Below, one piece after another: positions 27,065-47,591 of a stretch of DNA of 64,000 nucleotides. The notes under the pieces were generated by a model. The model saw only the letters and a list, made by a program, of their open reading frames with translations. It made no database searches and was not told where the DNA came from. Source of the DNA: a bacterium (GTDB taxonomy: Bacteria > Zixibacteria > MSB-5A5 > GN15 > FEB-12); contig JADJGQ010000001.1 in NCBI GenBank assembly GCA_016708025.1, positions 515,153 to 579,152 of the forward strand. The letters are read 5' to 3'. Positions within the stretch are counted from its first letter, which is position 1, and every line of letters begins with the position of its first letter. A program made the translations under genes and the position numbers.

Positions 27065-27068
27065 GTAG

Positions 27069-29795: not shown

Positions 29796-29797
29796 GA

Positions 29798-31448: not shown

Positions 31449-32585
31449 TCACCCCTCGATCATTTCGACATTGGCGCGCGGAACAATGGCCCGTTTGCCG
31501 TCATCGAATTCAACCTCAAGAATACGTGCCTTTGACTCTGATTCCAGAATCTGGAGCGGAGCGGGGAGATCGGTTACTTTGCCGAGTTGGCCGAAATACG
31601 GGTGGCGAATAACACGTATCGGCGAACCGATCTTGAGTCCTTCGACCGGAATTTCGCTTTTCGCCTGCTTTGGGTCGATCTGAGATGCCGCCGGGATCAC
31701 TACTTCGGGGCGAATCACGCCGGCGCGGATCTGAGTTGCGCCGTTGATGCAGGCCATCTGCCCCTCGTGGCGCTTGAGAAGCTCAAACGTCTTCAGAGCC
31801 ATGTTAATCTGACCAAACCCCTCGGTCACGACCAAAGTTGTGATAGTATCTTCGGAGCCGGTGATAGCGACGCCAATGTCGTAGCCGAGGAAGTCGCGAA
31901 GATCCTTGTCATCAAAGCCCCCGACAACAATGCCGCGAACGCCGATCTGGATCGCTTTGCGTAAGGCGGCGGCCGTCACCAGAGAGCCACCGACAATGAT
32001 GTGACCTTTGTGGGCTTCGTTAATCAGATTGTCGGAAAGGACAGTTTTGTTGTCAGCAGTGACCACTTTGAGCGGACCATGGGTTTCGCCGCCGATGCCA
32101 AAGATTCCCTGCACAAACCCGGCGATGCAAGTGACCACGACACCTTCACGGGGAAGAACCTCGGTCACTTCACCCATAACATACGCTTTCACCTCGACAG
32201 GTGTGGGCAAACCCCTCTGCAGAACCTGGCCGGTGATGTGCGAGACGGACTCGATAGTGCCCTCGATGGTAGCTTCACACTTGTTTCCACCCAGAAACTT
32301 GAGACCAAAAAGCGGCTTCGACTGAGCGACCGGTTCACCAGCCTTGATCTGGTCACCGGGCTTTTTCAGCATGACGGTTTCCAGGTCTTCTGGCGGGATC
32401 CCCATCTTGTTGGCGACGTTAAGCGGCACAACCGCACCGGGAAGCAGGGTCCTGGCCACCACCGTATCCGGGGTGACTTTGTCTCCGAGTTTGACCAGCA
32501 CATCTCCCTTGAGCGGAAGGATGCGGTGCTTACGGATGACCAGTTGGTCGGTTACTTTGAGTCCGGGTGTATACGCGTGGCCCAT
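31449..32585 (-). CDS. Conserved hypothetical protein, last gene of the GlmL-like operon
   Basis: 378-aa ORF (MGHAYTPGLKV...) with barrel-like N-terminal and C-terminal segments and a central GHIIVGGSLVTAAALRKAIQIGVRGIVVGG region. No catalytic motif recognised. Confidence 0.55.
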   Translation of the reverse strand: MGHAYTPGLKVTDQLVIRKHRILPLKGDVLVKLGDKVTPDTVVARTLLPGAVVPLNVANKMGIPPEDLETVMLKKPGDQIKAGEPVAQSKPLFGLKFLGGNKCEATIEGTIESVSHITGQVLQRGLPTPVEVKAYVMGEVTEVLPREGVVVTCIAGFVQGIFGIGGETHGPLKVVTADNKTVLSDNLINEAHKGHIIVGGSLVTAAALRKAIQIGVRGIVVGGFDDKDLRDFLGYDIGVAITGSEDTITTLVVTEGFGQINMALKTFELLKRHEGQMACINGATQIRAGVIRPEVVIPAASQIDPKQAKSEIPVEGLKIGSPIRVIRHPYFGQLGKVTDLPAPLQILESESKARILEVEFDDGKRAIVPRANVEMIEG

Positions 32586-32600: not shown

Positions 32601-33368
32601 TCACGATTGCCGTTGTCTTTTTTTGCGTCGGGCGGCCAGGGCAATGATCAATATGACGACTACCGCGCCAGAGGTAGGCGCCCAAATAGCGGTCTTACTG
32701 CCCTTAGACTCCGTTGCTTTACTGATCTTGTCTGGGTCAGCGATCTTACTGGTCTCACGCGGAATGACCGACTGCACGTTTTCCGTCGTAAATGACGCCA
32801 CTACTGAACTGAGGACCGGCAGGTTGAGGGAGAAAGCGGAGTCGGTTGCGTAGTAGAAGTAGTTCGCAATCCCGCCCTCATAGAAATGCATGACGAGCAA
32901 GGTAGCTTTCCCGCCGGATGCCGAGTCGGCTTCTTCGGACAGCACAGCGGCAGTCTTAGAACTCGGGTCCCATGCGATCTTGCCGTACGAGAGATTGTTC
33001 AGCAGAGTGGCGGAAGGTTTGATCTCGCGGGGTTTCTCGAAAGTATCTTCGAACCCGACGATGATCGAGTCGATCTGCTTGTCGGTCAGCCCCGGAAGAG
33101 TGTCGACTGTCAGGATGAAGTAGCTGTCGTGATACCACGGTTCAGAGGCAGTAGGCGCGAAAACAGCTTCGTAATCAAGCGTGCGCCGACGAGCTCCTGC
33201 CTGGCGAAGGTACGCATCGACAGTCAGGTAATCTATCTGTTTCCACTCGGCCGGATACGAGATGTAGAACTTGCCGCGAAAACTGACGAAATTTTCGGCC
33301 AGCAGGGAACCAGACAGAAGCAGGATCGAGAGACTGAGTAGGACTCTTCGAATCATTGATTCTCCCAC
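32601..33368 (-). CDS. Hypothetical exported protein with a C-terminal membrane anchor
   Basis: Signal peptide VLLSLSILLLSGSLLA and a C-terminal TM GAVVVILIIALAA followed by RRKKRQRQS. It is located between the GlmL-like gene and the 378-aa ORF. Confidence 0.5.
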   Translation of the reverse strand: MGESMIRRVLLSLSILLLSGSLLAENFVSFRGKFYISYPAEWKQIDYLTVDAYLRQAGARRRTLDYEAVFAPTASEPWYHDSYFILTVDTLPGLTDKQIDSIIVGFEDTFEKPREIKPSATLLNNLSYGKIAWDPSSKTAAVLSEEADSASGGKATLLVMHFYEGGIANYFYYATDSAFSLNLPVLSSVVASFTTENVQSVIPRETSKIADPDKISKATESKGSKTAIWAPTSGAVVVILIIALAARRKKRQRQS

Positions 33369-33375: not shown

Positions 33376-35229
33376 TTACTTCCCCGGGATCTCGGGGTAA
33401 ATGTTAAGGTCGGTCATCCAGGTACGGAGATATTTAACGCGTTCATCCTCGGTCAATGACGAGAGGTCGAACGGCCGACCGCGGCCATCGAGAATGATCC
33501 CGACCACACCGCCGTGCAGTTCGCGTTCGACTTTGGCGCCTTTGCCTGCGCCGAGGTCGTAGTTGCGTTCCGGTTCGAAGGTTGCTTTGACAACTTTCGG
33601 GAGGCCGTTTTCCTGTATGCCGAGCGGGATCAGTTTCATTTCGAGATGGTTGAGCGTGCCGGAGACAGTGCCTTCGGGAAGCTCGATACTATATTTCATC
33701 ACCGGGCCGGGTTTCTTGACTGTGCCGACGGGGGCAACACAGGTGCCGAGGTGAATGAGGCAGTCTTTTTCGAATACTTCAGTCGCGGCTTTCGGCTGGA
33801 CTTCAGTCAAGACACCAAGCTGCGGCATCATGAAGATCGAGTCGACCGCGAGGCGGGTGACACCTTCGGGAAGGAAGGAGTCGATCATCATGAGGGCCGA
33901 CTGCGAACGGCGCGGGGCATGCGAAAGTACACCGCCGGAGCCGATGAGCATATTCAGCGACATCATATTGACGATTGTCGCACCGGAGGCTGACTGCTCA
34001 AATGCGTCGGCGATCGTCCGCTGCTGCTGGACGCCTTTGAGGACGGTCGCGAAATTCTTGTGTTGGACGAACGCCAATCGGAGCGCTTCGCGCGCGATCG
34101 CCTGTTCGAAGATCAGTTCCTCGAGCGACTGCGGGATAGTGGTCGGGCGGATCATCTTGTTTTTGACGCGATTGCGCAGGTCGCGTTCATCCATCTTAAA
34201 CGGCACCCAGCGCATCACCATCGGCAAGGTAGCCTCGGCAAAGACGTTGGAGATGGAATAGGACATACCGAGGTTAGCCGAGACGGTTCGGTTGAAGACC
34301 GGAGTTTTTGAGTCCGGGCGGAATACGGAGAAAACGTCCGTGGTCGCGCCGCCGATATCAACGCCGACCGCCTCTATATTGTAAATGTCAGCAATGGTCT
34401 GAATAATGAGTCCGACAGCGCCGGGGGTTGGCATGATCGGGGCATCAGCCCAGGACATCAGCTTCTTGTATCCCGGGGCCTGCGCCATCACGTGCTCCAT
34501 GAATAACTCATGAATCTCTTCGCGGGCCGGGCCGAGGTTCTCTCGTTCAAGAACCGGGCGGAGATTGTCGACTACGCGAAGATCTACTTTGTCGGAGAGC
34601 GCTTCTTTGACTGCTTCGCGTGCGTCTTTGTTGCCTGCGTAGATGATCGGCAATTTGTAGCCAGTACCGAGGCGAGGGCGCGGGTCGGCTGCGGAGACCA
34701 ATTCGGCGATCTCTACCACGTGTGTGGTTGTGCCGCCGTCAATACCACCGGAGAGCAGGATCATATCAGGGCGAAGGTGTCGAATACGTTCGATCTGTTG
34801 GTGGGGGAGGCGCCTGTCGTTGGAAGCGATCACATCCATCACAATTGCCCCGGCGCCAAGGGCGGCACGTTCCGCGGATTCCGCGGTCATTGAACGAACC
34901 ACGCCAGCCACCATCATCTGCAAGCCGCCGCCGGCCGAGGAAGTCGAGATGTAGACGTCGGTTCCCACATTTCCCTTAGCGGGTGAGATGAATCGTCCCT
35001 GTTCATCGAGGATTTTGCGGCCGGACAGTTCTTCGAGTTCGTTCACGGCGTTGAGGACACCCATGGTGACGTCCTCGAATGGGGCTTCGACCGTAGTGGG
35101 TGCTTCGCCTCGGCTCAAAAGGCGATACTCGCCATTCACGAATTCGATAAGAATGGCTTTGGTGGTGGTGGAGCCGCAGTCGGTCGCGACAATGACTTTG
35201 ATATCTTCAGGTTTTGCGAACTTAGCCAT
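33376..35229 (-). CDS. GlmL/MutL-like ASKHA-fold ATPase (glutamate-mutase-L family)
   Basis: The N-terminal phosphate-1 motif VIVATDCGSTTTKAILIEF, plus later LLSGGIDGG and VGVDIGGATTDVFS motifs, are typical of the glutamate mutase accessory (GlmL) / hydantoinase-like family. ATG 35229 is preferred. Confidence 0.75.
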   Translation of the reverse strand: MAKFAKPEDIKVIVATDCGSTTTKAILIEFVNGEYRLLSRGEAPTTVEAPFEDVTMGVLNAVNELEELSGRKILDEQGRFISPAKGNVGTDVYISTSSAGGGLQMMVAGVVRSMTAESAERAALGAGAIVMDVIASNDRRLPHQQIERIRHLRPDMILLSGGIDGGTTTHVVEIAELVSAADPRPRLGTGYKLPIIYAGNKDAREAVKEALSDKVDLRVVDNLRPVLERENLGPAREEIHELFMEHVMAQAPGYKKLMSWADAPIMPTPGAVGLIIQTIADIYNIEAVGVDIGGATTDVFSVFRPDSKTPVFNRTVSANLGMSYSISNVFAEATLPMVMRWVPFKMDERDLRNRVKNKMIRPTTIPQSLEELIFEQAIAREALRLAFVQHKNFATVLKGVQQQRTIADAFEQSASGATIVNMMSLNMLIGSGGVLSHAPRRSQSALMMIDSFLPEGVTRLAVDSIFMMPQLGVLTEVQPKAATEVFEKDCLIHLGTCVAPVGTVKKPGPVMKYSIELPEGTVSGTLNHLEMKLIPLGIQENGLPKVVKATFEPERNYDLGAGKGAKVERELHGGVVGIILDGRGRPFDLSSLTEDERVKYLRTWMTDLNIYPEIPGK

Positions 35230-35463
35230 GAAATGGTCCGTCACCCTTTCGTAATTCCCTGCTATATGCTTAGGCTGCAATGCGATATCTGGCCCGTGTG
35301 GCAGTGCAGGCGGTGCTTTAGGCGGCCATTATAATACGAAGCACCCATGATGTAAAGCGATTTTCCCTTTCCGCCAATGGCTTAGAGGGGAGGCCCGAGG
35401 ATTTTGCATTCACACAGCGGGAGTGAATCATGTGAGCACCGACAGGGTCATGTGACTGATGTA

Positions 35464-35495
35464 ACATATTGCCAGTAAACCACTAGGCAATATGT
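35464..35495. promoter_or_regulatory. Operator-like perfect inverted repeat upstream of the 12-gene operon
   Basis: ACATATTGCC (35464-35473), 12 nt, then GGCAATATGT (35486-35495). It is preceded by the direct repeat TCATGTGA at 35428-35435 and 35448-35455. Confidence 0.35.
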
Positions 35496-35511
35496 GAAAT
35501 CGATTTTCTCC

Positions 35512-35540
35512 TTGACTTGGAGCTCCGTGAAAAATAGATT
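35512..35540 (+). promoter_or_regulatory. Sigma70-like promoter candidate for the 12-gene operon
   Basis: TTGACT (35512-35517), a 17-nt spacer, then TAGATT (35535-35540). This would give a 5' leader of about 155 nt before the first ORF. Confidence 0.35.
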
Positions 35541-35702
35541 CAGACCCAAGCCGCCGGTTGCGGCTCTTTCCGACATCGTTCGCCCAAGTACTGGTTTCTA
35601 CCGGGAATTGACTTGATACGAAGCGGCTTACGAACGTCCTAGACAGCAGAGGATCGATACACACGGCGTAGGACCGATTACACAGAGCTTGGGACTAGAC
35701 CA

Positions 35703-36983
35703 TTGACTTTGCCGAAGACTCATTTCGACCACCTGTCTTATATTGTGGTCGTTTTTGTTGCCGCATTTTGCTTAAACCAGACTATCGTGAGTCCGGTTTT
35801 TGCCCAGTCTGCTGCGGTGACGGATACAGCCCAGATCATCGCTGAAATAGCCGCTCCTCCGTCAGAATTCATCCCCCCTGCACCACAGAACGTCATAGTC
35901 TCAGACAATCCCAATGACGATGGTCATGCGATTTTGATCAGGTGGGATTCGGTGGCGACCGACCAGGCTGGGTTGGTTGACCGGTACGAGATCTGGCGTG
36001 CGGCGGCAAGTAACGGCACAGCCGGCGAGTTCACGAATTTAGGCGATGTCGCCATGGGGACATACGTTTTCCGTGATGGTCAGGCCAACGAGGGTCAGTC
36101 CTACTATTACAAAGTGTATGCGGTCAATGATTCGGCCGCGAATGGTTCACCCGTCTGGGCATTGACGGCGGAATCCGAGATCGCCGGACCGGGAACGCCA
36201 GTCGCTCAGTGGTTTGACATGCAACGGATTAACGTGTTTGTCGGCGTGTTGCTGCTCTGCGCATTTATCATATTCTACATTATGCAGGCCCGTTCGGGGA
36301 AAACGCTGTTCATCCGCAAGATCGCCGGACTTGAGGCGGTTGATGAAGCCGTGGGCCGTGCGACTGAGATGGGGAGGAAGATCTACTTCATTCCCGGATC
36401 GCAGGATATGGATCAAGTTCAGACAATTGCCGGTATCACTATACTTGGTCGCGTCGCTGAAATGGCGGCGCAATACGAGACGAAATTGGATGTGCCGGTT
36501 TCGCGTTCACTGGTGATGGTGACCGCGCGCGAAGTGGTCAAAGAGGCGTATGCCAAAGCCGGACGGCCCGACTCGTTTCAGGAAGATCAGGTCCATTACC
36601 TGACTGACGATCAGTTTGGCTATGCCGCGGCGATCGACGGCATGGTGGTGCGTGAGAAGCCGGCCACTATCTTTATGATGGGGCTGTTTTATGCCGAGTC
36701 GCTGATCTTAGCGGAGACGGGGAATTCGGTCGGGGCGATCCAGATCGCCGGAACGGGTGAGCCATCCCAATTGCCGTTCTTTGTAGCCGCCTGCGATTAC
36801 ACTTTGATCGGTGAAGAACTGTTTGCGGCCTCGGCCTACTTGTCGCGAGAGCCGCGACAACTGGGGTCGTTAAAGGGGCAGGATGTCGGAAAGGGGCTGA
36901 TCCTGGTGGCGATCATCATAGGGATACTGCTCGAGACCTTTGAAATCTGGGATTTCTCCAGTCTATTCACGGTGATACAATAG
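35703..36983 (+). CDS. Module 1 subunit A: uncharacterised membrane protein (signal/anchor + Fn3-like ectodomain + conserved TM-flanked domain)
   Basis: Hydrophobic N-terminus IVVVFVAAFCLNQTIVSPVFAQS. Fn3-like pattern (PQNVIVSD..GHAILIRW..YEIWR..YYYKVYAV). TM helix VFVGVLLLCAFIIFYI. Conserved blocks LFIRKIAGLEAVDEAVGRATEMG, AESLILAETGNSVGAIQIAGT and PFFVAACDYTLIGEELFAASAYL are shared with A2 and A3. Start codon uncertain (TTG). Confidence 0.8.
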   Translation: MTLPKTHFDHLSYIVVVFVAAFCLNQTIVSPVFAQSAAVTDTAQIIAEIAAPPSEFIPPAPQNVIVSDNPNDDGHAILIRWDSVATDQAGLVDRYEIWRAAASNGTAGEFTNLGDVAMGTYVFRDGQANEGQSYYYKVYAVNDSAANGSPVWALTAESEIAGPGTPVAQWFDMQRINVFVGVLLLCAFIIFYIMQARSGKTLFIRKIAGLEAVDEAVGRATEMGRKIYFIPGSQDMDQVQTIAGITILGRVAEMAAQYETKLDVPVSRSLVMVTAREVVKEAYAKAGRPDSFQEDQVHYLTDDQFGYAAAIDGMVVREKPATIFMMGLFYAESLILAETGNSVGAIQIAGTGEPSQLPFFVAACDYTLIGEELFAASAYLSREPRQLGSLKGQDVGKGLILVAIIIGILLETFEIWDFSSLFTVIQ

Positions 36984-36985
36984 TT

Positions 36986-37633
36986 ATGCGCAGAGAGATC
37001 CCCCTCCTCATTACAGGTATCGCCGGAGTTGTTTTCGTCATTCAGTATTTCATTCCTCACTTTCCATTCAATCGTCTCAGCAACTGGTTCTCGGACTGGT
37101 TTTCGATCGTATCCGCCTGCGCTATCTGGCTTGGCGCGCTAAACCTGATCAAGATCTCGGTGGAGAAGATCGCATACAAGCGGCACGACTGGGGATATTC
37201 GATCATTGTAGTCGGCTGTTTCCTGCTCATGCTATTTTTTGGATTCATCCATTGGCAGGACTCGCGTGAACCGGGTCTGCCGTTCATCTGGATGTATGAT
37301 TACGTCTACACACCGCTGTCGGCGACGATGTTTGCTATCCTGGCATTTTTTGTCGGTTCGGCATCCTATCGTGCATTTAGGGCGCGCAATCTGGAGGCGA
37401 CCTTGCTGTTGTTGGCGGCCTTTTTTGTGATGCTTGGGCGCGTACCTGTGGGGGACGTATTGACCGGGTTCCTTCCCGAGCAATTCCAACTCTCGCAGGT
37501 GGCGGCCTGGATCATGAATTTCCCGAACTCCGCGGGTCAGCGCGCCATCATCATAGGGATCGCACTGGGGATCGTTTCGGCATCGTTGCGCATCATCCTT
37601 GGGATCGAGCGGTCTCATTTGGGAGGGGAGTAG
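36986..37633 (+). CDS. Module 1 subunit B: uncharacterised polytopic membrane protein
   Basis: ATG lies 2 nt after the A1 stop. About 5-6 TM helices. Motifs MRREIPLL, SASYRAFRARN, AGQRAIIIGIALG and LRIILGIERSHLG are shared with B2 and B3. Confidence 0.8.
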   Translation: MRREIPLLITGIAGVVFVIQYFIPHFPFNRLSNWFSDWFSIVSACAIWLGALNLIKISVEKIAYKRHDWGYSIIVVGCFLLMLFFGFIHWQDSREPGLPFIWMYDYVYTPLSATMFAILAFFVGSASYRAFRARNLEATLLLLAAFFVMLGRVPVGDVLTGFLPEQFQLSQVAAWIMNFPNSAGQRAIIIGIALGIVSASLRIILGIERSHLGGE

Positions 37634-37636
37634 CAG

Positions 37637-38638
37637 ATGAGCCGGCGGATTATTGAGATTCTGGTGATGGCATCGATCCTGGCAGTTACGCTGATGATCT
37701 ATATTGGCCGACGTAACGACTGGTTTGGGATCATTGAACTATCGACCGGAGCCTCAATTGTCGTAATACTGCTGTTGACGGCTGGACTTGGTTGGGTGAT
37801 GGTAAGAACGATCCAGGGACATCCGGCCGAACGAAGAATGGTCTTCCTGTTTATCGGCATCGCGATCACGGTTCCGTTCTTTATGTCACTTACGCAGAAG
37901 ATGTCGGTTTCGCCTGAGACCACGGAGCTAATGAACGGGCTTGAAGCGCTCCCTCCGGGTTCGCGAGTGCTGGTGACGTTCGACTACGATCCGGCATCGG
38001 CGCCGGAACTTCAGCCGATGGCGGAGTCATTCTTCCGTTACGCATTCGATCATCGGTTCAAGGTGATCATCATGGGGCTCTGGCCGCAGGGACCGACTCA
38101 GGCAAATCAGGCATTGGCAGTCGTGCTGGCGGATGAGAAATACAAGGCGATGAATCTTCAGTATGGGATCGACTATGTGAATCTCGGATTTCAGTCAGGG
38201 AACGAATTCGTTATTCAGCGGATCGGGTCCGATTTTCAGTCGATGTTCCGCGTGGATTTCAGCGGCACGCCATATGATCAGATCCCGTTAGTTAAAAATA
38301 TCAAGAATTTCTCCAATATCGATTATTCGTTCAATCTGTCGGCGGGGTATCCGGGGACTCGCGAGTGGGTCCTGATCGCGGTCGACCGGTACGGCCTAAA
38401 GATGGGGGCGGGGAATACAGCGGTGCAGACGACCGGAATGTACCCATATGTACGCTCGGGGCAGTTGATCGGGATTCTGGGCGGGATGAACGGGGCGGCT
38501 GAATTCGAAGAAGCCACGGGGTATCTGGGGAAAGGGACGCGCTTCATGCTGTCTCAGTCCTTTGCTCATATGATCATCATCGTTTTCATCCTGATAGGGA
38601 ATGTGGCGTACTTCATGCACGAGCGGAAGCGGAAGTAA
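37637..38638 (+). CDS. Module 1 subunit C: uncharacterised protein with TM helices at both ends and a ~250-aa soluble middle domain
   Basis: GGAGGGGAG SD. Extra N-terminal TM helices compared with C2 and C3. Blocks VLVTFDYDPASAPELQPMA, QLIGILGGMNGAAEFE and the C-terminal TM AHMIIIVFILIGNVAYF followed by a basic tail are shared with C2 and C3. Confidence 0.8.
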   Translation: MSRRIIEILVMASILAVTLMIYIGRRNDWFGIIELSTGASIVVILLLTAGLGWVMVRTIQGHPAERRMVFLFIGIAITVPFFMSLTQKMSVSPETTELMNGLEALPPGSRVLVTFDYDPASAPELQPMAESFFRYAFDHRFKVIIMGLWPQGPTQANQALAVVLADEKYKAMNLQYGIDYVNLGFQSGNEFVIQRIGSDFQSMFRVDFSGTPYDQIPLVKNIKNFSNIDYSFNLSAGYPGTREWVLIAVDRYGLKMGAGNTAVQTTGMYPYVRSGQLIGILGGMNGAAEFEEATGYLGKGTRFMLSQSFAHMIIIVFILIGNVAYFMHERKRK

Positions 38639-38639
38639 T

Positions 38640-39314
38640 ATGCAGACTGTGGCACCAACCTTCATCGAACATCTGGCGCTCTGGGTGGCCGCGTTCCTTA
38701 CGCTCGGGATCATCTCGTTTCTTTATCGTGACAATCTTTGGTACAAAGTATGTGAGTCTATCTTTGTCGGCATCTCGGCCGGCTACTGGTTTGTCATGCT
38801 GTTCTGGGATAACCTGTATGGCAAGTTCTGGCTGGGTGTTTTCCCGAATCCTGGGACGGAGCGAGCAGATGACTGGTATATGCTGTACGTTGGCGTCATT
38901 CTTGGGATCATGATGCTACTGCGACTGGTGCCGAAGATCGGCTGGTTATCGCGGTGGCCGCTGGCGTTCATTGTCGGCGCGACTGCAGGGCTGAACCTGA
39001 TCATCTATTTTGCGTCGAACGTCATGGTGCAGGTCGAGGATACGGTGCGACCGTTGTTTGGGATGGGGATGTCTGCCTCATTATATGACATTGTGGGAAA
39101 TATAGTCGTCGCGGTCGGGACTTTCACCTGCCTTATCTATTTTTTCTTTTCAAAAGAGCATAAAGGGGCTTTCGGAGCGACGGCCAAAGTTGGTATATTC
39201 TTTTTGATGGTGACCTTCGGGGCATCGTTCGGCTATACGGTGATGAGCCGTATGTCGCTGCTGATCGGAAGAATTGATTTCCTGCTGACCGACTGGTTGA
39301 GAATCATAGGATAG
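38640..39314 (+). CDS. Module 1 subunit D: uncharacterised polytopic membrane protein
   Basis: ATG lies 1 nt after the C1 stop. About 6 TM helices. Blocks ISFLYRDNLWYKVCESIFVG, YFFFSKEHKGAFG and FGASFGYTVMSRMSLLIGRIDFL are shared with D2 and D3. Confidence 0.8.
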   Translation: MQTVAPTFIEHLALWVAAFLTLGIISFLYRDNLWYKVCESIFVGISAGYWFVMLFWDNLYGKFWLGVFPNPGTERADDWYMLYVGVILGIMMLLRLVPKIGWLSRWPLAFIVGATAGLNLIIYFASNVMVQVEDTVRPLFGMGMSASLYDIVGNIVVAVGTFTCLIYFFFSKEHKGAFGATAKVGIFFLMVTFGASFGYTVMSRMSLLIGRIDFLLTDWLRIIG

Positions 39315-39316
39315 GG

Positions 39317-40564
39317 TTGGAACGAATGAAGATAACCGGCTGGAAGACCACTGTCATAGGAGCGCTGTTGCTGGCGCTGGCGTGGTCGTATGAGCTTTCT
39401 GCTCAGCCGCCGGTCCCCGACAGTGTACAGCTAGCCGATAGTGTGGCAATTCCCCCGCCTGCCCCAGCGACCTCTCTGGTTGCCTCCGATCATAAGTATG
39501 ACGATGCATCAGCGATCGAACTGAGCTGGGTACCCTCGATTGATGACCAGCTCATGGAGGGTCGGGTTACTGGGTACAAGCTGTACCGAACATCGTCAGG
39601 TGGTCAACCGAGGATGATCGCGGAGCTTCCCGCCGGATCGAATTTCTTCCAGGATGAGTCAGTCGATGGTGACTCCAGCTATAATTACTATATCGAAGCA
39701 ATTTCTGCGGGATCAGTCTCCCGATCGATCGTGACGGCCTCAATCTCTCCCGAGGCTGAATGGTTCAATTTCAATCGAAAATATCTATTCTTGATAGCCC
39801 TACTTGTTTCGGTGTCGGTTATCTATTTCATCGAAACGGCACGGCGGGGGAAAGCGCTGTTTATCCGGAAGATCGCCGGCCTCGAGGCAGTGGATGACGC
39901 TATCGGGCGTGCAACCGAGATGGGACGGCCGATCCTGTTCATTCCCGGGATCCAGGATATGGACAATCCACAGACAATCGCGGGGTTGACAATTCTCGGC
40001 CATGTTTCCCGTACGATAGCAGAGTACGACACCAAGATCACCATGCCGGTATCTCGATCGCTGGTCATGACCGCTGCGCGCGAGACGATCAAAACCTCAT
40101 ATATGACGGCCGGACGTCCGGATGCTTATAATGATGACATGGTCAACTACATCACGGACGAGCAGTTTGGTTATGTTGCAGCAGTTGATGGGATCATGGT
40201 ACGTCAGAAACCTGCAGCCTGCTTTTATCTGGGGGCGTTTTTCGCAGAGTCATTGATCATGGCGGAGACGGGGAATTCTATCGGCGCAATTCAGATCGCC
40301 GGTACGGCGATGCCAGCCCAGTTGCCGTTTTTTGTGGCGGCCTGCGATTTCACCTTGATCGGTGAAGAGCTGTTTGCAGCATCCGCGTACCTGTCCAATG
40401 AACCTAAGCAGTTGGGTTCATTGAAAGGGCAGGATGTCGGCAAAGGGGTGGCGATGGCGGTGATTCTGATCGGAGCGGTCGCGGCGACTGCCTCGGTTGC
40501 CTGGAACAGCGAATTGGCGACCTCAGTTTTTAACTTCTTAACCTCAGTCTTCCAGACGAATTAG
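39317..40564 (+). CDS. Module 2 subunit A (paralogue of 35703-36983)
   Basis: Signal VIGALLLALAWSYELSAQ. Fn3-like segment (AIELSW..YKLYR..YNYYIEAI). TM helix, then LFIRKIAGLEAVDDAIGRATEMGRPILFIPG ... PFFVAACDFTLIGEELFAASAYL. Start is TTG 39317 or ATG 39326. Confidence 0.8.
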   Translation: MERMKITGWKTTVIGALLLALAWSYELSAQPPVPDSVQLADSVAIPPPAPATSLVASDHKYDDASAIELSWVPSIDDQLMEGRVTGYKLYRTSSGGQPRMIAELPAGSNFFQDESVDGDSSYNYYIEAISAGSVSRSIVTASISPEAEWFNFNRKYLFLIALLVSVSVIYFIETARRGKALFIRKIAGLEAVDDAIGRATEMGRPILFIPGIQDMDNPQTIAGLTILGHVSRTIAEYDTKITMPVSRSLVMTAARETIKTSYMTAGRPDAYNDDMVNYITDEQFGYVAAVDGIMVRQKPAACFYLGAFFAESLIMAETGNSIGAIQIAGTAMPAQLPFFVAACDFTLIGEELFAASAYLSNEPKQLGSLKGQDVGKGVAMAVILIGAVAATASVAWNSELATSVFNFLTSVFQTN

Positions 40565-40571
40565 GCAGTCC

Positions 40572-41249
40572 ATGAAACGACAGATCCCGCTGCTTATAAC
40601 GTTTATTGTCGGTGCACTGCTGATCGTGTCGGTATTCGTACCTCCGCTTGAAGGGATGCAGGAAAACTCGACCCTATTTTTTGACATTATTGCGGTCTTT
40701 GCCTTTTTCCTGGGCGGTGGTAACCTGATCCGGATACATATGACGAAAGTTGCCCGCAAAAAAGGTGACTGGCAATATTCGATCGTCACGCTCTTCGGAT
40801 TCCTGTTGATGCTTTCAAGCGGTCTGTTCAAGATCGGGAATCCGGGTGATATCGCCGCACAGGTGGACGCCGCCGGCTCCTGGTTCCAGACGATCTTCTT
40901 CTATCTGATGTCTCCGCTCAATTCAACGATGTACGCTTTGCTGGCGTTTTTTGTGGCCTCAGCATCGTACCGTGCATTCAGAGCCAAAAATCGCGAAGCA
41001 ACGATTCTGCTGGTTTCAGCTTTTATCATCCTTCTGGGGCAAACGCCATTCGGCACGATGTTGACCAGTTGGATGCCGGAGAAGTTTTCGGTCCTCGAGA
41101 TCCCGAATATGGCCGTCTGGGTGATGAGTTCGCCCAACCTGGCGGGACAGCGAGCGATCCTGATCGGGATTGGTCTTGGTGTGGTCGGTATGGCGCTCCG
41201 CATTATTCTTGGGATCGAACGAACCTATCTTGGGGAGGATAAGGGATGA
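40572..41249 (+). CDS. Module 2 subunit B
   Basis: MKRQIPLLITF..., SASYRAFRAKN, AGQRAILIGIGLG and LRIILGIERTYLG. Polytopic. Confidence 0.8.
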   Translation: MKRQIPLLITFIVGALLIVSVFVPPLEGMQENSTLFFDIIAVFAFFLGGGNLIRIHMTKVARKKGDWQYSIVTLFGFLLMLSSGLFKIGNPGDIAAQVDAAGSWFQTIFFYLMSPLNSTMYALLAFFVASASYRAFRAKNREATILLVSAFIILLGQTPFGTMLTSWMPEKFSVLEIPNMAVWVMSSPNLAGQRAILIGIGLGVVGMALRIILGIERTYLGEDKG

Positions 41250-42190
41250 TGGCACCAATACTCCCTCTGTCGCTCTTCCAGCCAGGCGTGATCATCTCGC
41301 TGGCGGTTATCGGTCTTGGTCTTGCATACCTGCTCCGACGGACATTGCTCGGGAAAGAGGTCGACCGCAAAGTCATCTTCGCTTTCATCTTTGTCGCAGT
41401 GGCGACACCGATCCTGTTCCCGATCACGTTTGAGGTCAAGGCGACCCCCATTGCGAAAGCTCTGTTTGACAAGATCGAGAGCCTGCCGGAAGGGACCAAG
41501 ATCATGATCTCATATGATTTTGATCCCGCCATGGCCCCCGAAGTCTTGCCGGCGGCAAACGCGGTGGTGCGGCACTGCATGCAGAAGAATCTTCGAGTGA
41601 CGTTCATCGCGATCTGGGCGACCGGTCAGTCCCTGTTGAATCAGACCCTGCAACAAGTAGTGCGAGTGGAATTCCCCGAAAAACGGGAGGGAATCGACTG
41701 GTGTAATATTGGCTACAAGGCCGGGAACGAAGGAGTCATGAACGTGATCGTGACCAATCTTCGCAAGATGTTCCCGACCGATGTCAACAGTCGTCCGCTC
41801 GACAGCCTCGATATCCTTAATGGCATTCTGAGTTGCCGTGATTTCAAGTTGATAGTCTCATTCGGCGGTGGACAGCCAGGACCGAAAGAGTGGATTCTCT
41901 ATGTCGGAGACCCGGGGAATGTGCCGATCGGTGCGGGAACCGCGGCGGTCTCCGCGCCGCAGTTATATGCCTATTATCCAAAGCAGTTGATCGGACTGTT
42001 GGGCGGAGTCAAAGGGGCTGCCGAATACGAATTTGAACTGCTCACCAAGTACCCTCGCTTCAAAGAAGTTGATGCACCAGGCATCAGGATGATGGGGCCG
42101 CAGACATTGGCGCATGTGGTGATCATTGCGTTTATCGTGCTCGGAAATATCGCGTTCATGCGCGGGCGGCGGAAAGAGGGGGACAAGTGA
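41246..42190 (+). CDS. Module 2 subunit C
   Basis: The start overlaps the B2 stop (ATGATG). Blocks IMISYDFDPAMAPEVLPAA, QLIGLLGGVKGAAEYE and the C-terminal TM AHVVIIAFIVLGNIAF plus a basic tail are present. Confidence 0.8.
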   Translation: MMAPILPLSLFQPGVIISLAVIGLGLAYLLRRTLLGKEVDRKVIFAFIFVAVATPILFPITFEVKATPIAKALFDKIESLPEGTKIMISYDFDPAMAPEVLPAANAVVRHCMQKNLRVTFIAIWATGQSLLNQTLQQVVRVEFPEKREGIDWCNIGYKAGNEGVMNVIVTNLRKMFPTDVNSRPLDSLDILNGILSCRDFKLIVSFGGGQPGPKEWILYVGDPGNVPIGAGTAAVSAPQLYAYYPKQLIGLLGGVKGAAEYEFELLTKYPRFKEVDAPGIRMMGPQTLAHVVIIAFIVLGNIAFMRGRRKEGDK

Positions 42191-43023
42191 GCAGATTGGC
42201 CTTGATCGTGACCGCCTGCATTCTCGTGCTGTTTGCGGTAAGTTGGATAGTCAAAGGGATGCAGGCCAGTGATGCCGAGGTAGACAACTATATCCTTCGC
42301 GGATTCCTTGTCACCTGTTCGGCATTCCTGACTCTGGCGATCTTGTCGTTCCTCTATAAAGACAATCCGTTTTACAAATTCGCTGAACATCTGTATGTGG
42401 GGATATCGGCAGGGTACTGGATGTCGCAGGGGTTCTGGTCGACTATCGTCGGCAACCTGATCCCGCGACTGTCCGAGTCACTCTCCGGATTTTTCAAGCA
42501 GCCCTACAATGCAGGGGAGTGGGTCGGCGGATTCTTCTATACGAACTGGATGTATTTCATTCCGGTGATCTTCGGCATCTTATTGCTGATGCGGCTCTCA
42601 TCCAAATATGGGTACATCTCGCGCTGGGCGCTAGCGTTCATTATCGGGACGACTGCTGGATTGCAGTTCATTCGATATCTGCGCTCGGATTTCATAGAGC
42701 AGATATCGTCCACGTTTGTCCCGTTGCTGGTAGACTGGCAGGGGATAGGGCATTTCTTCTCGAACTTCTCACTGTCCGCGACGGGTCAATTTGTGATGAT
42801 GGTCAGTAATTGGATCATCTTCCTTGGCGTGCTCTGCGGATTGGTTTATTTCTTTTTCTCAAAAGAGCACACAGGGCTCTTTGGGAAAGCGTCACGCTTC
42901 GGCATCTGGATACTGATGGTGACGTTTGGCGCTTCATTTGGCTATACGGTGATGGGACGTGTCTCACTATTAGTGGGTCGGATCACGTTCCTGTTCCGAG
43001 ATTGGTTGGGAATTACAAGCTAA
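42187..43023 (+). CDS. Module 2 subunit D
   Basis: The GTG start overlaps the C2 stop. Blocks LSFLYKDNPFYKFAEHLYVG, YFFFSKEHTGLFG and FGASFGYTVMGRVSLLVGRITFL are present. Confidence 0.8.
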   Translation: MSRLALIVTACILVLFAVSWIVKGMQASDAEVDNYILRGFLVTCSAFLTLAILSFLYKDNPFYKFAEHLYVGISAGYWMSQGFWSTIVGNLIPRLSESLSGFFKQPYNAGEWVGGFFYTNWMYFIPVIFGILLLMRLSSKYGYISRWALAFIIGTTAGLQFIRYLRSDFIEQISSTFVPLLVDWQGIGHFFSNFSLSATGQFVMMVSNWIIFLGVLCGLVYFFFSKEHTGLFGKASRFGIWILMVTFGASFGYTVMGRVSLLVGRITFLFRDWLGITS

Positions 43024-43052
43024 TGATATTGCAACCGGGAAACGGAGGAAGA

Positions 43053-44324
43053 ATGACCTTCACACTCCGACTTGCTTTGCTTTTTCTGCTTCTGACGTGC
43101 GCCGTCGCGGCGCAAACAGACGCACCGGTGGACACTGCGACGATGGCGGATACAGCCGCTATGGCTTCGCCAGTGCCGACCTTCCCCCCACCTGCTCCAG
43201 TAACTGGGCTAACGGCAGCCGACTCGCCGGATGATCATGGTCACTCGATCATGTTGTCCTGGCAGCCATCGGCTGATGATGGTCAGGGTTCTGGTTCGGT
43301 GGTGATGTATGTGATCTATTCCAGTCTCTCACTGGATGGACCGTTCGACAGCGTGGGAAATGCGGTTTCCGGAGCCAGGTCATTTGTCCATTCAAGTGCA
43401 AAGGACAAAGAAGCGCCTGGATTCATTGCCGATCATGTCGACCGCTATTATCGCGTCGAAGCGGTTACTGCGGATCCGACTGTTCGGACAACGTCGACGA
43501 CTTTTGGCCCAGTGCAATCGAGCGGCCAATGGTACAACAGTGGACGTACACCGGTGTTGTTCGCGGTGCTGATCTTTGGTGCATTGGCGCTTTATTTCCT
43601 GAATCAGGCAAAACGCGGTACGGACCTGTATGTTCGCCCACTGGGCGGCATTGAGGCGGTCGATGAAGCGATCGGACGTGCCACTGAAATGGGGAAACCG
43701 ATCCTGTATGTGCTTGGATTGGGAACGGCGTCAGACATTTCGACGATCGCGTCATTTACGATTCTCGGTCGTGTGGCCAAACGCGTTGCCGAATACCAGA
43801 CCCACCTGATCGTGCCGTGTTATGACCCGATCGTGATGGCGGTGGCACAGGAGACGGTCAAGGCGGCCTACATGGATGCTGGCCGACCGGACGATTACAA
43901 AGAAGACATGGTCTACTTCCTGACCAATTCGCAGTTTGGCTATGTTGGTGCGGTCAATGGGATCATGCTCCGGCAGCTCCCCGCCACTAACGTTTATATG
44001 GGCAAGTTCTACGCGGAGTCGCTGCTTCTGGCAGAGACCGGCGCGCTGGCTGGTTCGATTCAGATCGCTGGAACGGATGAGGTAGCGCAGATTCCGTTCT
44101 TTGTAGTGGCGTGCGATTACACGCTGATCGGCGAGGAGCTGTATGCGGCCTCGGCCTATCTCGGTCGTGAACCGCTTTTGCTTGGTTCGCTGAAAGCGCA
44201 GGACTACGCCAAAGCCGCTGTCATTATATTGGCCCTCGTCGGTGCAATCCTGTTGAATTTCTCCGATGGGTCAACGGGAAGCTGGCTAACGGGATTCAAG
44301 GACCTCTTTAAGGTGGCCAACTGA
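43053..44324 (+). CDS. Module 3 subunit A (most divergent paralogue)
   Basis: GGAGGAAGA precedes ATG 43053. Signal MTFTLRLALLFLLLTCAVAAQ. Fn3-like segment (HSIMLSW..YVIYS..YYRVEAV). Then LYVRPLGGIEAVDEAIGRATEMGKPILYV ... PFFVVACDYTLIGEELYAASAYL. The track ORF start at 42810 overlaps D2 and is rejected. Confidence 0.8.
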   Translation: MTFTLRLALLFLLLTCAVAAQTDAPVDTATMADTAAMASPVPTFPPPAPVTGLTAADSPDDHGHSIMLSWQPSADDGQGSGSVVMYVIYSSLSLDGPFDSVGNAVSGARSFVHSSAKDKEAPGFIADHVDRYYRVEAVTADPTVRTTSTTFGPVQSSGQWYNSGRTPVLFAVLIFGALALYFLNQAKRGTDLYVRPLGGIEAVDEAIGRATEMGKPILYVLGLGTASDISTIASFTILGRVAKRVAEYQTHLIVPCYDPIVMAVAQETVKAAYMDAGRPDDYKEDMVYFLTNSQFGYVGAVNGIMLRQLPATNVYMGKFYAESLLLAETGALAGSIQIAGTDEVAQIPFFVVACDYTLIGEELYAASAYLGREPLLLGSLKAQDYAKAAVIILALVGAILLNFSDGSTGSWLTGFKDLFKVAN

Positions 44325-44340
44325 AGAGGAGACGGATGAG

Positions 44341-45000
44341 ATGAAACGACAAATACCCTTATTGTTAGTGCTGGTATTCGGCCTCTTCATGGTCTTTCAA
44401 TACTTTGTTCCCCATGAATCGTCTGAATTCCTCTACGAATACTTGCTCGACTGGATCACCATCATTGGTATTTTTGCCCTGGTGCTGGGGATCTGGTCTT
44501 TGTTCAAAGTGAACATGGAAAAGATCACGCAAAAGAAACCAGACCGCGGATTCTCGATAGTCCTGCTGGTCAGCTTGTTTGCGACCATGTTTTTCGGATT
44601 TTTCGCCAAGGTTGACGGGTCATGGGGACTGCACTTCAGTACCGCTGAAGGACTGCAGAGCTACATGTACCGTCACGCGTACGAGTACATCATTCGACCT
44701 ATCCAATCGACGATCTTCTCGCTGCTGGCCTTCTTTATTGCGTCAGCGGCGTACCGGGCCTTCCGCGCTCGCAACGTTCTGGCAAGCCTGCTGCTGGTCG
44801 CCGCATTGATAGTGATGCTTCGCTTTAATCCATACCTCGGGTTCTTCGGTGACTATATCAGCGACGCGGCCAACTGGCTGCTGAATGTGCCAAACCTTGC
44901 CGCAAAACGAGCGATCGTTATCGGAATCGGGCTTGGCATGGTGGCGACGGCGCTGAAGGTAATTCTGGGGATTGAACGAAGCTACATGGGGAAGGGATAA
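44341..45000 (+). CDS. Module 3 subunit B
   Basis: MKRQIPLLLVL..., SAAYRAFRARN, AAKRAIVIGIGLG and LKVILGIERSYMG. Polytopic. Confidence 0.8.
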   Translation: MKRQIPLLLVLVFGLFMVFQYFVPHESSEFLYEYLLDWITIIGIFALVLGIWSLFKVNMEKITQKKPDRGFSIVLLVSLFATMFFGFFAKVDGSWGLHFSTAEGLQSYMYRHAYEYIIRPIQSTIFSLLAFFIASAAYRAFRARNVLASLLLVAALIVMLRFNPYLGFFGDYISDAANWLLNVPNLAAKRAIVIGIGLGMVATALKVILGIERSYMGKG

Positions 45001-45012
45001 GGAGGTCGAACG

Positions 45013-45888
45013 ATGAATATATTCGAAAAAATGATGTCGATCGACCGCCGCTGGGTTTTTCTGCTGCTGGCTGTGGTAGTGATCGGAACATATGCGGTCT
45101 CATTCGAGATCCCGATCCGGGTGAACAGTGAAGTGCGAAACATTTACGAGTTCATTGACAAACTTCAACCCGGTGAGATCGTGTATTTGGGGGTCGATTA
45201 CGACCCTTCAAATCAGGCAGAATTGCATCCGATGGCCTATGCGGTCATGGAGCATTGTTTCCGCAAGAAACTCAAGATCATCTTCTGCACCCTTTCGCAG
45301 TATGGTCCGGGGATGGTTGATGGCGCGATCAAGGATATCACCGATTCCATGCGAGTCGAGAAGACCTACCATGGCGTCACATATCCGGGTCGAGAACTGG
45401 TGAACGGCGAAGACTATGTCTTCCTTGGTTACAAGGCGTATTTCGCGCTGCAGATCCTGGCGATGGGCCAGAATTTCAGACTTCCATTCCCAGTGGACTA
45501 TTACGGCAGACCGCTGGATGAGCGTCCGATGATGAAGGGGGTCATGAATTACAAACAGGTTGCGTGTGTGGTCGCACTTTCCGGCGGCAATATCACGGAG
45601 GCCTGGATCTCATACGGGCAGGGGAGATTCAATTTCCCGCTCGCTTTGGGGACGACCGGCGTTATGGCAGCGGATTACTATCCCTACCTCAACTCCGGAC
45701 AGGTGTTTGGTTTGATGGGAGGACTGCTGGGCGCCGCGCAGTATGAGAAGCTGTCGGATAACCCTGGTCCGGCGATCGACGGGATGCGGGTGCAGGTGTT
45801 CGCTCACATCGTGATCATCGTGTTCATCATCATTGGCAATATCGGCTACTTCACTGAGCGCCGACGCAGAGCGAAGGAAGGCAGGTAA
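45013..45888 (+). CDS. Module 3 subunit C
   Basis: AAGGAGG SD. N-terminal TM WVFLLLAVVVIGTYAV. Blocks VYLGVDYDPSNQAELHPMA, QVFGLMGGLLGAAQYE and the C-terminal TM AHIVIIVFIIIGNIGYF plus a basic tail are present. Confidence 0.8.
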   Translation: MNIFEKMMSIDRRWVFLLLAVVVIGTYAVSFEIPIRVNSEVRNIYEFIDKLQPGEIVYLGVDYDPSNQAELHPMAYAVMEHCFRKKLKIIFCTLSQYGPGMVDGAIKDITDSMRVEKTYHGVTYPGRELVNGEDYVFLGYKAYFALQILAMGQNFRLPFPVDYYGRPLDERPMMKGVMNYKQVACVVALSGGNITEAWISYGQGRFNFPLALGTTGVMAADYYPYLNSGQVFGLMGGLLGAAQYEKLSDNPGPAIDGMRVQVFAHIVIIVFIIIGNIGYFTERRRRAKEGR

Positions 45889-45889
45889 T

Positions 45890-46660
45890 ATGGATTTCGA
45901 AACATTCCTTTGGACCACCTTTGCGGCGTTTGTCACGCTGGCTATTTTCAGCTTCCTGTATAAGGACAATCCGTTCTATAAGTTTGCCGAGCATTTGATG
46001 GTCGGGACAGCAACGGGGTACTTTTCGGTGCTGCTCTGGCACAATAACCTCTATCCGAATTTGTTCCAGAAGCTGGCAGATGGAGTGTGGTGGTATCTGG
46101 TACCTGGTTTTCTGGGGCTGTTGATGTGGACTCGATTCTCAAAGAAGTACTCCTGGGTGTCGCGTTGGCCAATGGCGCTGTACATTGGTATCTCCGCTGG
46201 GCTGGCGATCCCGCTCGAAATGTCCAACCGCGTGATCAAGCAGATGCATGCAATGATGAGCGATGTCTCCTGGGGCAGTTTTTTCGGCAGCGGGATATTC
46301 GACTCTCAGTCCGGGCTGTCAGATCTGATAATCCTGATCGGTGCTTTGGCCGCGTTAGCGTATTTCTTCTTCTCTAAAGCACACACTGGTGCCTTCGGGG
46401 GATTTGCGAAATTCGGCATCTGGGTTCTGATGATCGGATTTGGAGCGTCGTTCGGGTATACCGTGATGGCGCGTATTTCACTGTTCATCGATCGCGTGCA
46501 GTTCCTGCAGAAGACCTGGATCTACAACGCCTTTGACAGCAGTGCCGCAGGTTACCACAGCGGTTATCAGGTTGCCTTCTTCGTCGTGGTATTGGCGATC
46601 TTAGCCTACATCGCGAGGGAGATTTGGGTACATTTGAGAAAACCTGAAAACATTAGTTGA
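45890..46660 (+). CDS. Module 3 subunit D
   Basis: ATG lies 1 nt after the C3 stop. Blocks FSFLYKDNPFYKFAEHLMVG, YFFFSKAHTGAFG and FGASFGYTVMARISLFIDRVQFL are present. Confidence 0.8.
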   Translation: MDFETFLWTTFAAFVTLAIFSFLYKDNPFYKFAEHLMVGTATGYFSVLLWHNNLYPNLFQKLADGVWWYLVPGFLGLLMWTRFSKKYSWVSRWPMALYIGISAGLAIPLEMSNRVIKQMHAMMSDVSWGSFFGSGIFDSQSGLSDLIILIGALAALAYFFFSKAHTGAFGGFAKFGIWVLMIGFGASFGYTVMARISLFIDRVQFLQKTWIYNAFDSSAAGYHSGYQVAFFVVVLAILAYIAREIWVHLRKPENIS

Positions 46661-46683
46661 CAGATGTATTGAACTATCTTAGC

Positions 46684-46723
46684 AAGCCCATTGGCGAACT
46701 ACGCCGATGGGCTTGTTTGTTTG
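46684..46723 (+). terminator. Rho-independent terminator ending the 12-gene operon
   Basis: 11-bp stem AAGCCCATTGG (46684-46694) / CCGATGGGCTT (46704-46714) with one G-U pair, followed by GTTTGTTTG. It starts 24 nt after the D3 stop. Confidence 0.65.
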
Positions 46724-47520: not shown

Positions 47521-47591
47521 ATTGCCCCGGAGTGAGTTTTTACCTAGATTCTCCAGCACTATTTTCGGGTAACTTATTTAAGGAGCGCGTA

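Follow-up and report, generated by a model that had tools for sequence, protein, structure and literature searches.

In several bacterial envelope systems, including the group II energy-coupling factor (ECF) transporters, the phosphotransferase system (PTS), whose EI/HPr serves several EII complexes, and the TonB-ExbBD system with its many receptors, one soluble energising module serves several membrane modules. A locus with a similar division of parts is described here in a 64,000-nt stretch of DNA from a bacterium of the Zixibacteria (FEB-12; GenBank assembly GCA_016708025.1, contig JADJGQ010000001.1, positions 515,153 to 579,152), which is called the window hereafter and whose own numbering is used for all coordinates. 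Twelve tightly packed open reading frames (ORFs) on the plus strand (35703-46660) make up three tandem modules with the same gene order, A-B-C-D. These are very probably three anciently diverged copies of a conserved four-gene unit that encodes a hetero-oligomeric inner-membrane complex. Next to them lie the genes for a GlmL/MutL-like ATPase with the ASKHA fold (named for acetate and sugar kinases, heat shock cognate 70 and actin) and for a protein termed Y. The likeness to group II ECF transporters, PTS EI/HPr and TonB-ExbBD lies in the several paralogous membrane modules, with one GlmL-like/Y pair per three modules here, and in the predicted cytoplasmic face of the A-B-C-D proteins being their most conserved part and the outward-facing parts their least conserved. 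The difference is that proteins A to D carry no P-loop and that profile searches returned no PTS, ECF or ExbB/TolQ family. Mannose-type IIC and IID components of the PTS were also considered and gave no matches.

The subunit inventory of the module is close in size and topology to that of the Na+-translocating NADH:quinone oxidoreductase (Na+-NQR) and Rnf complexes, and the N-terminus of the partner Y is weakly RnfC_N-like. However, this likeness is architectural only: Pfam and PDB-profile searches gave no match, A to D have no conserved cysteines or cofactor motifs, and the A-B-C-D module contains neither a counterpart of NqrB/RnfD nor a fifth large membrane subunit such as Rnf/NQR possess. 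The tripartite ATP-independent periplasmic (TRAP) and tripartite tricarboxylate (TTT) transporters share with the module a polytopic core and a periplasmic alpha/beta domain that evolves fastest. In contrast to their two-lobe binding protein, C is anchored at both ends by transmembrane (TM) helices and has a single Rossmann-like lobe; the best binding-protein match of C is 4ru1 (probability 0.57, TM-score 0.18), and no DctM/DctQ or TctA/TctB match to A to D was obtained with Pfam or NCBIfam. The same libraries gave no match to ATP-binding cassette (ABC) transporters above noise in A to D, which also lack a Walker A motif. The families of MotA/TolQ/ExbB and ExbD/TolR (PF01618, PF02472) are absent from A to D and occur only in a separate Tol cluster, as TolQ in the window and as ExbD in the related locus L081. 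Cytochrome c maturation proteins (Ccs-like) were rejected as relatives, there being two invariant His residues only and no WWD motif to be seen.

Organization of the triplicated locus

The first-pass annotation of the window had described twelve plus-strand ORFs in three A-B-C-D copies, and all twelve are present, save that three starts had to be corrected. Module 1 consists of A1 (35703..36983, 426 aa), B1 (36986..37633, 215 aa), C1 (37637..38638, 333 aa) and D1 (38640..39314, 224 aa). Module 2 consists of A2 (39317..40564, 415 aa), a paralogue of A1, followed by B2 (40572..41249, 225 aa), C2 (41246..42190, 314 aa), which overlaps B2 by 4 nt, and D2 (42187..43023), which overlaps C2 by 4 nt and comprises 278 aa from a putative GTG start. 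Module 3 consists of A3 (43053..44324, 423 aa), B3 (44341..45000, 219 aa), C3 (45013..45888, 291 aa) and D3 (45890..46660, 256 aa). The start of D1 was moved from 38601 to 38640 and that of D3 from 45833 to 45890, and both products are then identical to the NCBI gene calls. For A3, the mechanical ORF start at 42810 was replaced by the ATG at 43053, which has GGAGGAAGA ahead of it and gives the signal peptide MTFTLRLALLFLLLTCAVAA/Q. The GTG start of D2 is uncertain, and its exact product was not found in the protein collection. With the corrected starts, the intergenic gaps range from -4 to +29 nt, in keeping with the -4 to about 30 nt given earlier. Among the products looked up, the NCBI name is 'hypothetical protein', as for B1, except for A1, which is named only for its fibronectin type III (Fn3) domain.

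Direct-repeat families in the DNA of the array have a spacing of ~3.5-3.8 kb and an identity of 60-80%, which argues for an old duplication rather than an assembly artefact. GC content is uniform. Directly 3' of D3 lies an intrinsic terminator (46681..46717, plus strand) with a 16-bp stem, a 5-nt loop and a U-rich tail. Its fold energy is -28.6 kcal/mol (z-score -5.5), and 0 of 200 shuffled sequences were as stable. This hairpin was found by eye and was missed by a consensus terminator scan because its tail is GUUUGUUUG and not a clean U run. The promoter or promoters presumably lie in the 422-nt divergent intergenic region between the GlmL-like gene and A1 (35281..35702). A consensus scan upstream of A1 counted no more promoter-like sites than in shuffled sequence, and no riboswitch or other RNA was matched by Rfam in this region or in the whole window. 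Of the single promoter and terminator that had been proposed for the array, the terminator is thus borne out by the hairpin after D3 and the promoter is not supported by the scan. The twelve genes plausibly form one transcription unit, of which the terminator is visible and the promoter only presumed.

Paralogy and distribution of the module

Corresponding proteins of the three modules are clearly related, as had been suggested, with identities of 32-64%. The A paralogues are 46-54% identical over the whole protein, 52-64% in the part assigned to DUF6754 and 31-38% in the ectodomain; the values are 45-49% for B, 32-35% for C and 45-52% for D. Comparisons of A, B, C and D against one another gave noise level only, and A and C, as well as B and D, were unrelated by hhalign. 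Of the 14 motifs quoted in the first-pass annotation, 13 match all three copies exactly. The C motif was inexact and should read G[IL][LM]GG..GAA, with two residues, not three, between GG and GAA.

The order A-B-C-D had been expected to recur in other genomes, and 159 complete modules were found in 107 loci. The junctions AB, BC, CD and DA were counted 180, 175, 159 and 85 times, respectively, and out-of-order junctions between different families 0 times. A scan of one genome per species gave more than 438 DUF6754 relatives, from which 80 loci were kept. Most of these belong to the Zixibacteria, and the rest come from metagenome-assembled genomes (MAGs) or chromosomes labelled as other phyla (Acidobacteriota, Gemmatimonadota, Cloacimonadota, Marinimicrobia, Stahlbacteria and one 'Bacillota' MAG). 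Phylum labels of MAGs are not always reliable; two loci (L052 and L053) lie on complete chromosomes labelled Acidobacteriota (Versatilivoraceae, Terriglobia). In an exhaustive profile search, the DUF6754 family fell into 2,415 clusters at an identity of 50%; at 90% there are more than 8,000. Judged by these counts, the module is a widespread multi-phylum system and not a local curiosity, and purifying selection on its genes is obvious across phyla.

Loci of other phyla contain one module, and those of the Zixibacteria contain two, three or occasionally four in tandem, with further module loci elsewhere in the genome. Each position of a Zixibacteria array is orthologous to the same position of the window (1-2-3) with large score margins, and exchange of parts between modules was never seen in the Zixibacteria loci. 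This indicates that the triplication is ancient and that the modules evolve as units. Module 2 of the window is equally close to its own paralogues and to the modules that other phyla have in single copy, and it is probably the ancestral type. In ten diverse loci, the genes downstream of D share no common theme, and no transposase or integrase was seen among the recurrent flanking genes. A defence island was considered for the array and dropped, the chromosomal context being conserved across genomes. Solo DUF6754 (A) genes without B, C or D downstream occur at two loci (L006 and L065), and hence A paralogues can exist outside the module.

Domain architecture of proteins A to D

Protein A is predicted to start with a cleavable signal peptide and an Fn3 ectodomain, to cross the membrane by a TM helix, and to continue with a cytoplasmic alpha/beta domain and a C-terminal TM helix. 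In A1, signal peptide cleavage is predicted at about VFA/QS, and hydropathy places the first TM helix of the mature protein at residues 176-194. The match of a single A sequence to Pfam fn3 is weak (E 0.025). The family profile matches single titin Fn3 domains in the PDB with E values of 1e-5 to 3e-8, and Foldseek assigns the AlphaFold2 model a probability of 1.0 against Fn3 structures, so that the Fn3-like ectodomain predicted in the first-pass annotation is well founded. Foldseek matches of the whole A model are dominated by Fn3. The long N-terminal regions of other members that were scanned contain Fn3 repeats, a PQQ_2 (BamB-like) beta-propeller or no Pfam match, and one long ectodomain resembles a carbohydrate-binding module (CBM), by eye only.

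The C-terminal 255 aa of A1, A2 and A3 match Pfam DUF6754 (PF20539) end to end, with 420.7 bits (E 2e-126) for A1 and 418 bits for A2 against a gathering score of 27 bits. When DUF6754-only sequences were scanned, 23 of 23 diverse relatives, including A3, matched the family. By these profile matches, A is a member of the catalogued DUF6754, a family without assigned function; a literature search found no paper on DUF6754 or PF20539 and no structure. The DUF6754 portion is a 200-residue basic stretch between two TM helices, to which AlphaFold2 gives an alpha/beta fold with five strands. In an alignment of 23 sequences, taken from MAGs that carry the labels of several phyla, 56 columns are invariant; they include R, E, T and Q positions, a Cys-Asp and a Glu-Glu, and they follow the predicted beta-strands of a Rossmann-like fold in the model. 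Residues 329-380 of A1 (FYAESLILAETG..IQIAGT..PFFVAACDYTLIGEELFAASAYL) are the most conserved stretch of the system and near-identical across phyla. A B12-binding domain in DUF6754 was considered and dropped, as the DxHxxG motif was not seen in the alignment. DUF6754 stands at or near the C-terminus in every member listed, preceded by a region of ~30 to more than 1000 aa. A few members extend beyond the last TM helix; these C-terminal extensions are soluble domains and in no case B. Fusions of A with B, C or D were not found among the members.

C1 begins with three TM helices, which precede a Rossmann-like domain of six strands (about residues 93-295); its last TM helix carries an invariant His and an invariant Asn, and a strongly basic tail ends the protein. 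The N-terminal TM helices number one to three depending on the copy, with a single one in C3. Since TM helices bracket the domain and the C-terminal tail is basic, the soluble domain is placed in the periplasm. The AlphaFold2 model of C1 is confident (mean predicted local distance difference test, pLDDT, 90.4; predicted template modelling score, pTM, 0.82) and, together with hydropathy, agrees with the earlier description of a soluble domain between TM helices. A Foldseek search of this model against the PDB gave nothing significant (best E 3e-3, TM-score < 0.31); the non-significant matches are generic Rossmann halves of GT-B enzymes, eIF2B and TrkA. Neither Pfam nor PDB sequence profiles gave a relative of C. 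The sequence FDYDP suggested a HAD-like DxD phosphatase or a von Willebrand factor A (vWA) domain with a metal-ion-dependent adhesion site (MIDAS), and both were rejected, having no Pfam support and no other motifs evident by eye.

B and D have ~6 hydrophobic segments each by hydropathy and are polytopic, as had been assumed. In B1, an invariant turn rich in Arg (SASYRAFRARN) links TM4 to TM5, and ILGIERSxLG is conserved at the C-terminus; D1 contains the highly conserved short loops SFLYKDNxxYKxxE and YFFFSKEHxGxFG. By the positive-inside rule, those short loops of B and D that are rich in Lys and Arg are predicted to be cytoplasmic. Sequence-profile searches with B and D found no Pfam match and no PDB relative.

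Pfam and NCBIfam scans covered all 12 proteins plus 34-44 diverse members of each B, C and D family, and the matches for B, C and D were only scattered single-member noise. TMD0_ABC matched 6 of 34 B members, none of them better than E 0.0015. The PDB sequence-profile searches with A, B, C, D, DUF6754 alone and Y matched only Fn3. For Pfam, NCBIfam and PDB profiles, and for Foldseek searches of A and C, it therefore holds that no characterised system of transport, secretion or motility is a confident homologue, as implied by the first-pass annotation. Its view of the families as uncatalogued is right for B, C and D and wrong for A. A motif scan of the 12 proteins found no P-loop (GxxxxGK[ST]) and no HExxH, as stated before, and no CxxC or CxxCH. 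A conserved lipobox is likewise absent, as claimed; a single lipobox-like VTAC does occur at the N-terminus of D2 (residues 8-11; 42187-42230), inside a hydrophobic helix, and is missing from D1 and D3. B2, B3 and D3 contain zero cysteines. The cautious label of a candidate undescribed envelope complex can stand, with the function still only proposed.

Conservation gradient across the membrane

Pairwise identities were compared among the window paralogues and between module 2 and other phyla. DUF6754 is highest at 52-68%; B and D follow with 45-59%, then C with 32-42% and the A ectodomain with 31-38%. Across phyla, DUF6754 is about 60-68% identical. Conservation scores of predicted cytoplasmic and periplasmic loops are 0.63 vs 0.41 for B and 0.80 vs 0.29 for D, and those of the DUF6754 core and the ectodomain of A are 0.85 vs 0.39. 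By these measures, the predicted cytoplasmic face is the conserved end, and the predicted periplasmic face varies between paralogues and lineages. Because gene order is fixed, the modules diverge unit by unit, the predicted topologies are complementary and the genes are tightly spaced, the products of A to D almost certainly work together in the inner membrane, presumably as a complex.

The neighbouring GlmL-like ATPase and protein Y

The gene for the GlmL/MutL-like ASKHA ATPase (33376..35280, minus strand, 634 aa) is divergent from A1 and is followed on its own strand by X255 (32601..33368) and Y (31449..32585, 378 aa). Pfam MutL aligns with the GlmL-like protein from end to end (E 1e-129). 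With NCBIfam models, the scores are 239 bits for the GlmL equivalog, which has a cut-off of 475, and 177 bits for a subfamily model of the GlmL family, which has a cut-off of 204. The protein has ~130 extra C-terminal residues. By these scores it falls short of the GlmL equivalog but belongs to the broader Pfam MutL family. Its setting differs from that of the mutase accessory proteins of the GlmL/MutL family: no mutase gene is present among the neighbours, and the recurrent ones are Y, A-B-C-D, Tol-Pal and a PorV-like barrel. Literature searches for PF13941, for GlmL/ASKHA and for Zixibacteria with fibronectin gave nothing relevant.

Y has no Pfam family of its own. Its N-terminus is barrel-sandwich-hybrid-like, its middle Rossmann-like and its C-terminus KOW-like; matches to RnfC_N and Biotin_lipoyl are only weak, and a few Y homologues have precomputed RnfC_N (PF13375) matches. 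X255 sits between the GlmL-like gene and Y in Zixibacteria and appears to be secreted. It has a signal peptide, ends in a TM helix followed by RRKKRQRQS and weakly matches NF041738 (GlyGly-CTERM-like, E 0.025), so that a sorting signal at its C-terminus is possible.

In 24 of the 51 loci anchored on the module, the GlmL-like gene, Y or both are found upstream of it, and in ten loci the pair stands on the same strand directly before A. In a Y-anchored metagenome scan, 49 loci had enough downstream sequence; A-B-C-D follows Y directly in 18, is divergent as in the window in 3, TolQ follows Y with no module in view in 3, and neither applies in 25. The adjacency of module and pair persists despite inversion of orientation, as in the window. 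L052 (5815-13413) and L053 carry the eight genes P1-P2-GlmL-like-Y-A-B-C-D on one strand; the ORFs of L052 were read, and at four of its junctions, including that of Y and A, neighbouring genes overlap by 4 nt. L068 has P1-P2-GlmL-like-Y and the module on one strand and ends after B. P1 has two TM helices and is weakly bPH-like, and P2 is about 121 aa long. Both also precede the GlmL-like gene in many metagenome loci, and no homologue of either was found in the window. In a Marinimicrobia locus (L063, 14-2626), the GlmL-like protein and Y are fused; the product exceeds 870 aa, is encoded directly upstream of A and weakly matches RnfC_N (E 0.035). This Rosetta-stone fusion argues that the GlmL-like protein and Y act together. 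The module is thus often, as far as gene neighbourhoods tell, part of a larger unit with the GlmL-like ATPase, which was absent from the first-pass annotation.

Directly downstream of Y, on the minus strand, is a Tol-Pal cluster (26303-30945). TolQ (30232-30945, MotA_ExbB) and TolB (27791-29125) were matched by Pfam, and TolR, a TonB/TolA-like protein, an OmpA/Pal-like lipoprotein and a YbgF-like protein were named by sequence and by their Pfam-labelled counterparts in the Zixibacteria genome bin1124 (L081). Six loci show a Y homologue with, typically no more than a few nt downstream, a gene for a PorV/PorP-SprF-like outer-membrane beta-barrel; the two ORFs overlap by 4 nt in L108 (8823-9707). 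The Y homologues of these six loci are divergent members, and a GlmL-like gene was not recognisable in the stretch examined. By this neighbourhood evidence, GlmL-like/Y is a wider conserved unit whose recurrent neighbours are all envelope systems, A-B-C-D being the commonest.

Possible functions of the module

A tentative proposal, possible at best, is that each module is a transporter-like machine for translocation across the membrane, with variable periplasmic parts and a shared cytoplasmic partner. The membrane core would be formed by B and D (~6 TM helices each) with the TM helices of A and C. The fast-evolving periplasmic parts, the A ectodomain and the Rossmann-like domain of C, would set what each module handles or contacts, and the conserved cytoplasmic face, made of DUF6754 and the Lys/Arg-rich loops of B and D, would be the coupling or catalytic end. 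This face may dock a shared soluble partner, the GlmL-like ASKHA ATPase with Y, and one cytoplasmic GlmL-like/Y module could then serve several membrane modules, as in the ECF, PTS and TonB systems. Transport itself, the role of the ATPase and complex formation are what we infer from this arrangement. A bolder and doubtful extension is that P1-P2-GlmL-like-Y-A-B-C-D represents an unrecognised class of envelope machine, in which an ASKHA ATPase energises or gates inner-membrane translocation via several paralogous modules. The GlmL-like ATPase would stand in the place of an ABC, AAA+ or P-type ATPase or of a motor driven by the proton-motive force. To our knowledge, no ASKHA ATPase has been shown to power a transporter.

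Several observations weigh against the translocation proposal. Transport has no supporting homology or fold match among the searches described above, and B and D may be remote homologues of known folds, as they were compared at the level of sequence profiles. A significant internal repeat is a feature typical of many transporters; none was detected in B, and that in D is non-significant (45% probability). The GlmL family is known for accessory proteins of B12 mutases (glutamate mutase, ornithine aminomutase), not for transport motors. About half of the module loci have no ATPase pair nearby, and about half of the Y loci have no module. In bin1124, GlmL-X-Y precedes TolQRAB with no module nearby, which argues that the pair has a function of its own and that its coupling to the module may be regulatory or historical. 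Residues 329-380 of A1 have a pLDDT < 50, so that the fold and location of this stretch are uncertain, and the conserved acidic residues and invariant Cys-Asp of DUF6754 would fit an enzyme equally well.

The main rival, somewhat unlikely in our estimate, sees the module as enzymatic: a membrane-bound complex for the synthesis or modification of a lipid or polymer of the envelope. Catalysis would fall to DUF6754, the task of B and D would be to hold a lipid-linked intermediate or to flip it, and C and the A ectodomain would act on or bind the product outside. The conservation of DUF6754 is enzyme-like, with its invariant Cys-Asp and Glu-Glu, and D has aromatic and charged interface motifs (YKDNxxYK, FFFSKEH). 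No transferase, flippase or polymerase family was matched, however, and no gene of sugar or lipid biosynthesis is a recurrent neighbour. Among the best Foldseek matches of C, none of which is significant, roughly one in three is a Rossmann half of a GT-B glycosyltransferase, but the E values of these are 3e-3 or worse with TM-scores < 0.31, the fold is generic and a nucleotide-binding glycine motif is absent. The ectodomains of the family (Fn3, beta-propeller and the one that looks CBM-like by eye) would also suit such a complex, Fn3 being common in polysaccharide-handling proteins.

It is unlikely, though conceivable, that the module is a structural or signalling device that spans the envelope alongside Tol-Pal. 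Its variable periplasmic parts would touch peptidoglycan, the outer membrane or a ligand, and its cytoplasmic face would relay to GlmL-like/Y. Every recurrent neighbour of GlmL-like/Y is envelope-related (A-B-C-D, TolQ-TolR-TolA-TolB-Pal-YbgF and the PorV/PorP-like barrel), a variable outside with a conserved inside is also typical of receptors, and Fn3 and BamB-like propellers are interaction domains. However, the Tol-Pal linkage was seen in no more than 7-10 loci, all from close relatives within the Zixibacteria, and may simply reflect synteny. The 16-18 TM helices per module are many for a tether or sensor, and Pfam and NCBIfam scans revealed no known output domain (kinase, GGDEF, helix-turn-helix or anti-sigma).

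An ion-translocating energy converter of Rnf/Nqr/Mtr-like architecture is very unlikely. Two ~210-225-aa subunits with 6 TM helices, a bitopic periplasmic subunit and a TM-anchored cytoplasmic alpha/beta subunit would be its building blocks, accompanied by a soluble Y with weak RnfC_N matches; we take these sizes and topologies to parallel NqrD/NqrE, NqrC and NqrF, and Y to parallel NqrA. Rnf and Nqr structures are deposited in the PDB, but profile searches returned no Rnf or Nqr chain, and Pfam gave no Rnf-Nqr match. Since B2, B3 and D3 have no cysteine, an Fe-S centre of the NqrD/NqrE type is impossible here. A heme or Fe-S motif was not seen, nor was a covalent-flavin site by eye, and NqrB/RnfD has no counterpart. 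That the four genes form no single system, being unrelated co-travelling membrane genes or a mobile or defence island copied thrice, is scarcely credible: solo A genes exist, but order is fixed in 159 modules that diverge as whole units, GC content is uniform, no Rfam RNA lies in the window, no transposase or integrase was seen in recurrent flanks and chromosomal context is kept from genome to genome.

Dispensability is unlikely for a membrane module whose four genes are fixed in order and which genomes keep in up to three or more copies. Three of its four proteins (B, C and D) have no family assignment. Sediments, soils and digesters are rich in the lineages that bear it, most of which lack a cultured representative. 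If the module is a new machine for translocation or envelope biogenesis, it would fill a gap in how these bacteria build their envelope or feed through it; if it uses the GlmL-like ATPase, this would be a new role for the ASKHA fold. The evidence base for the module is all genomic, and the compact, overlapping eight-gene arrangement of L052 is suited to heterologous expression and cryo-electron microscopy.

Genes downstream of the array

Beyond the terminator of D3, a small basic ORF of 120 aa (47094-47456) carries the motif AEARREYQRRYYQMHKEKAKEYQRQYN and has only a weak DUF762 match; it is kept in 6 loci. Just downstream of it lies an ORF of 948 aa (47532-50378) that by eye resembles pyruvate phosphate dikinase.

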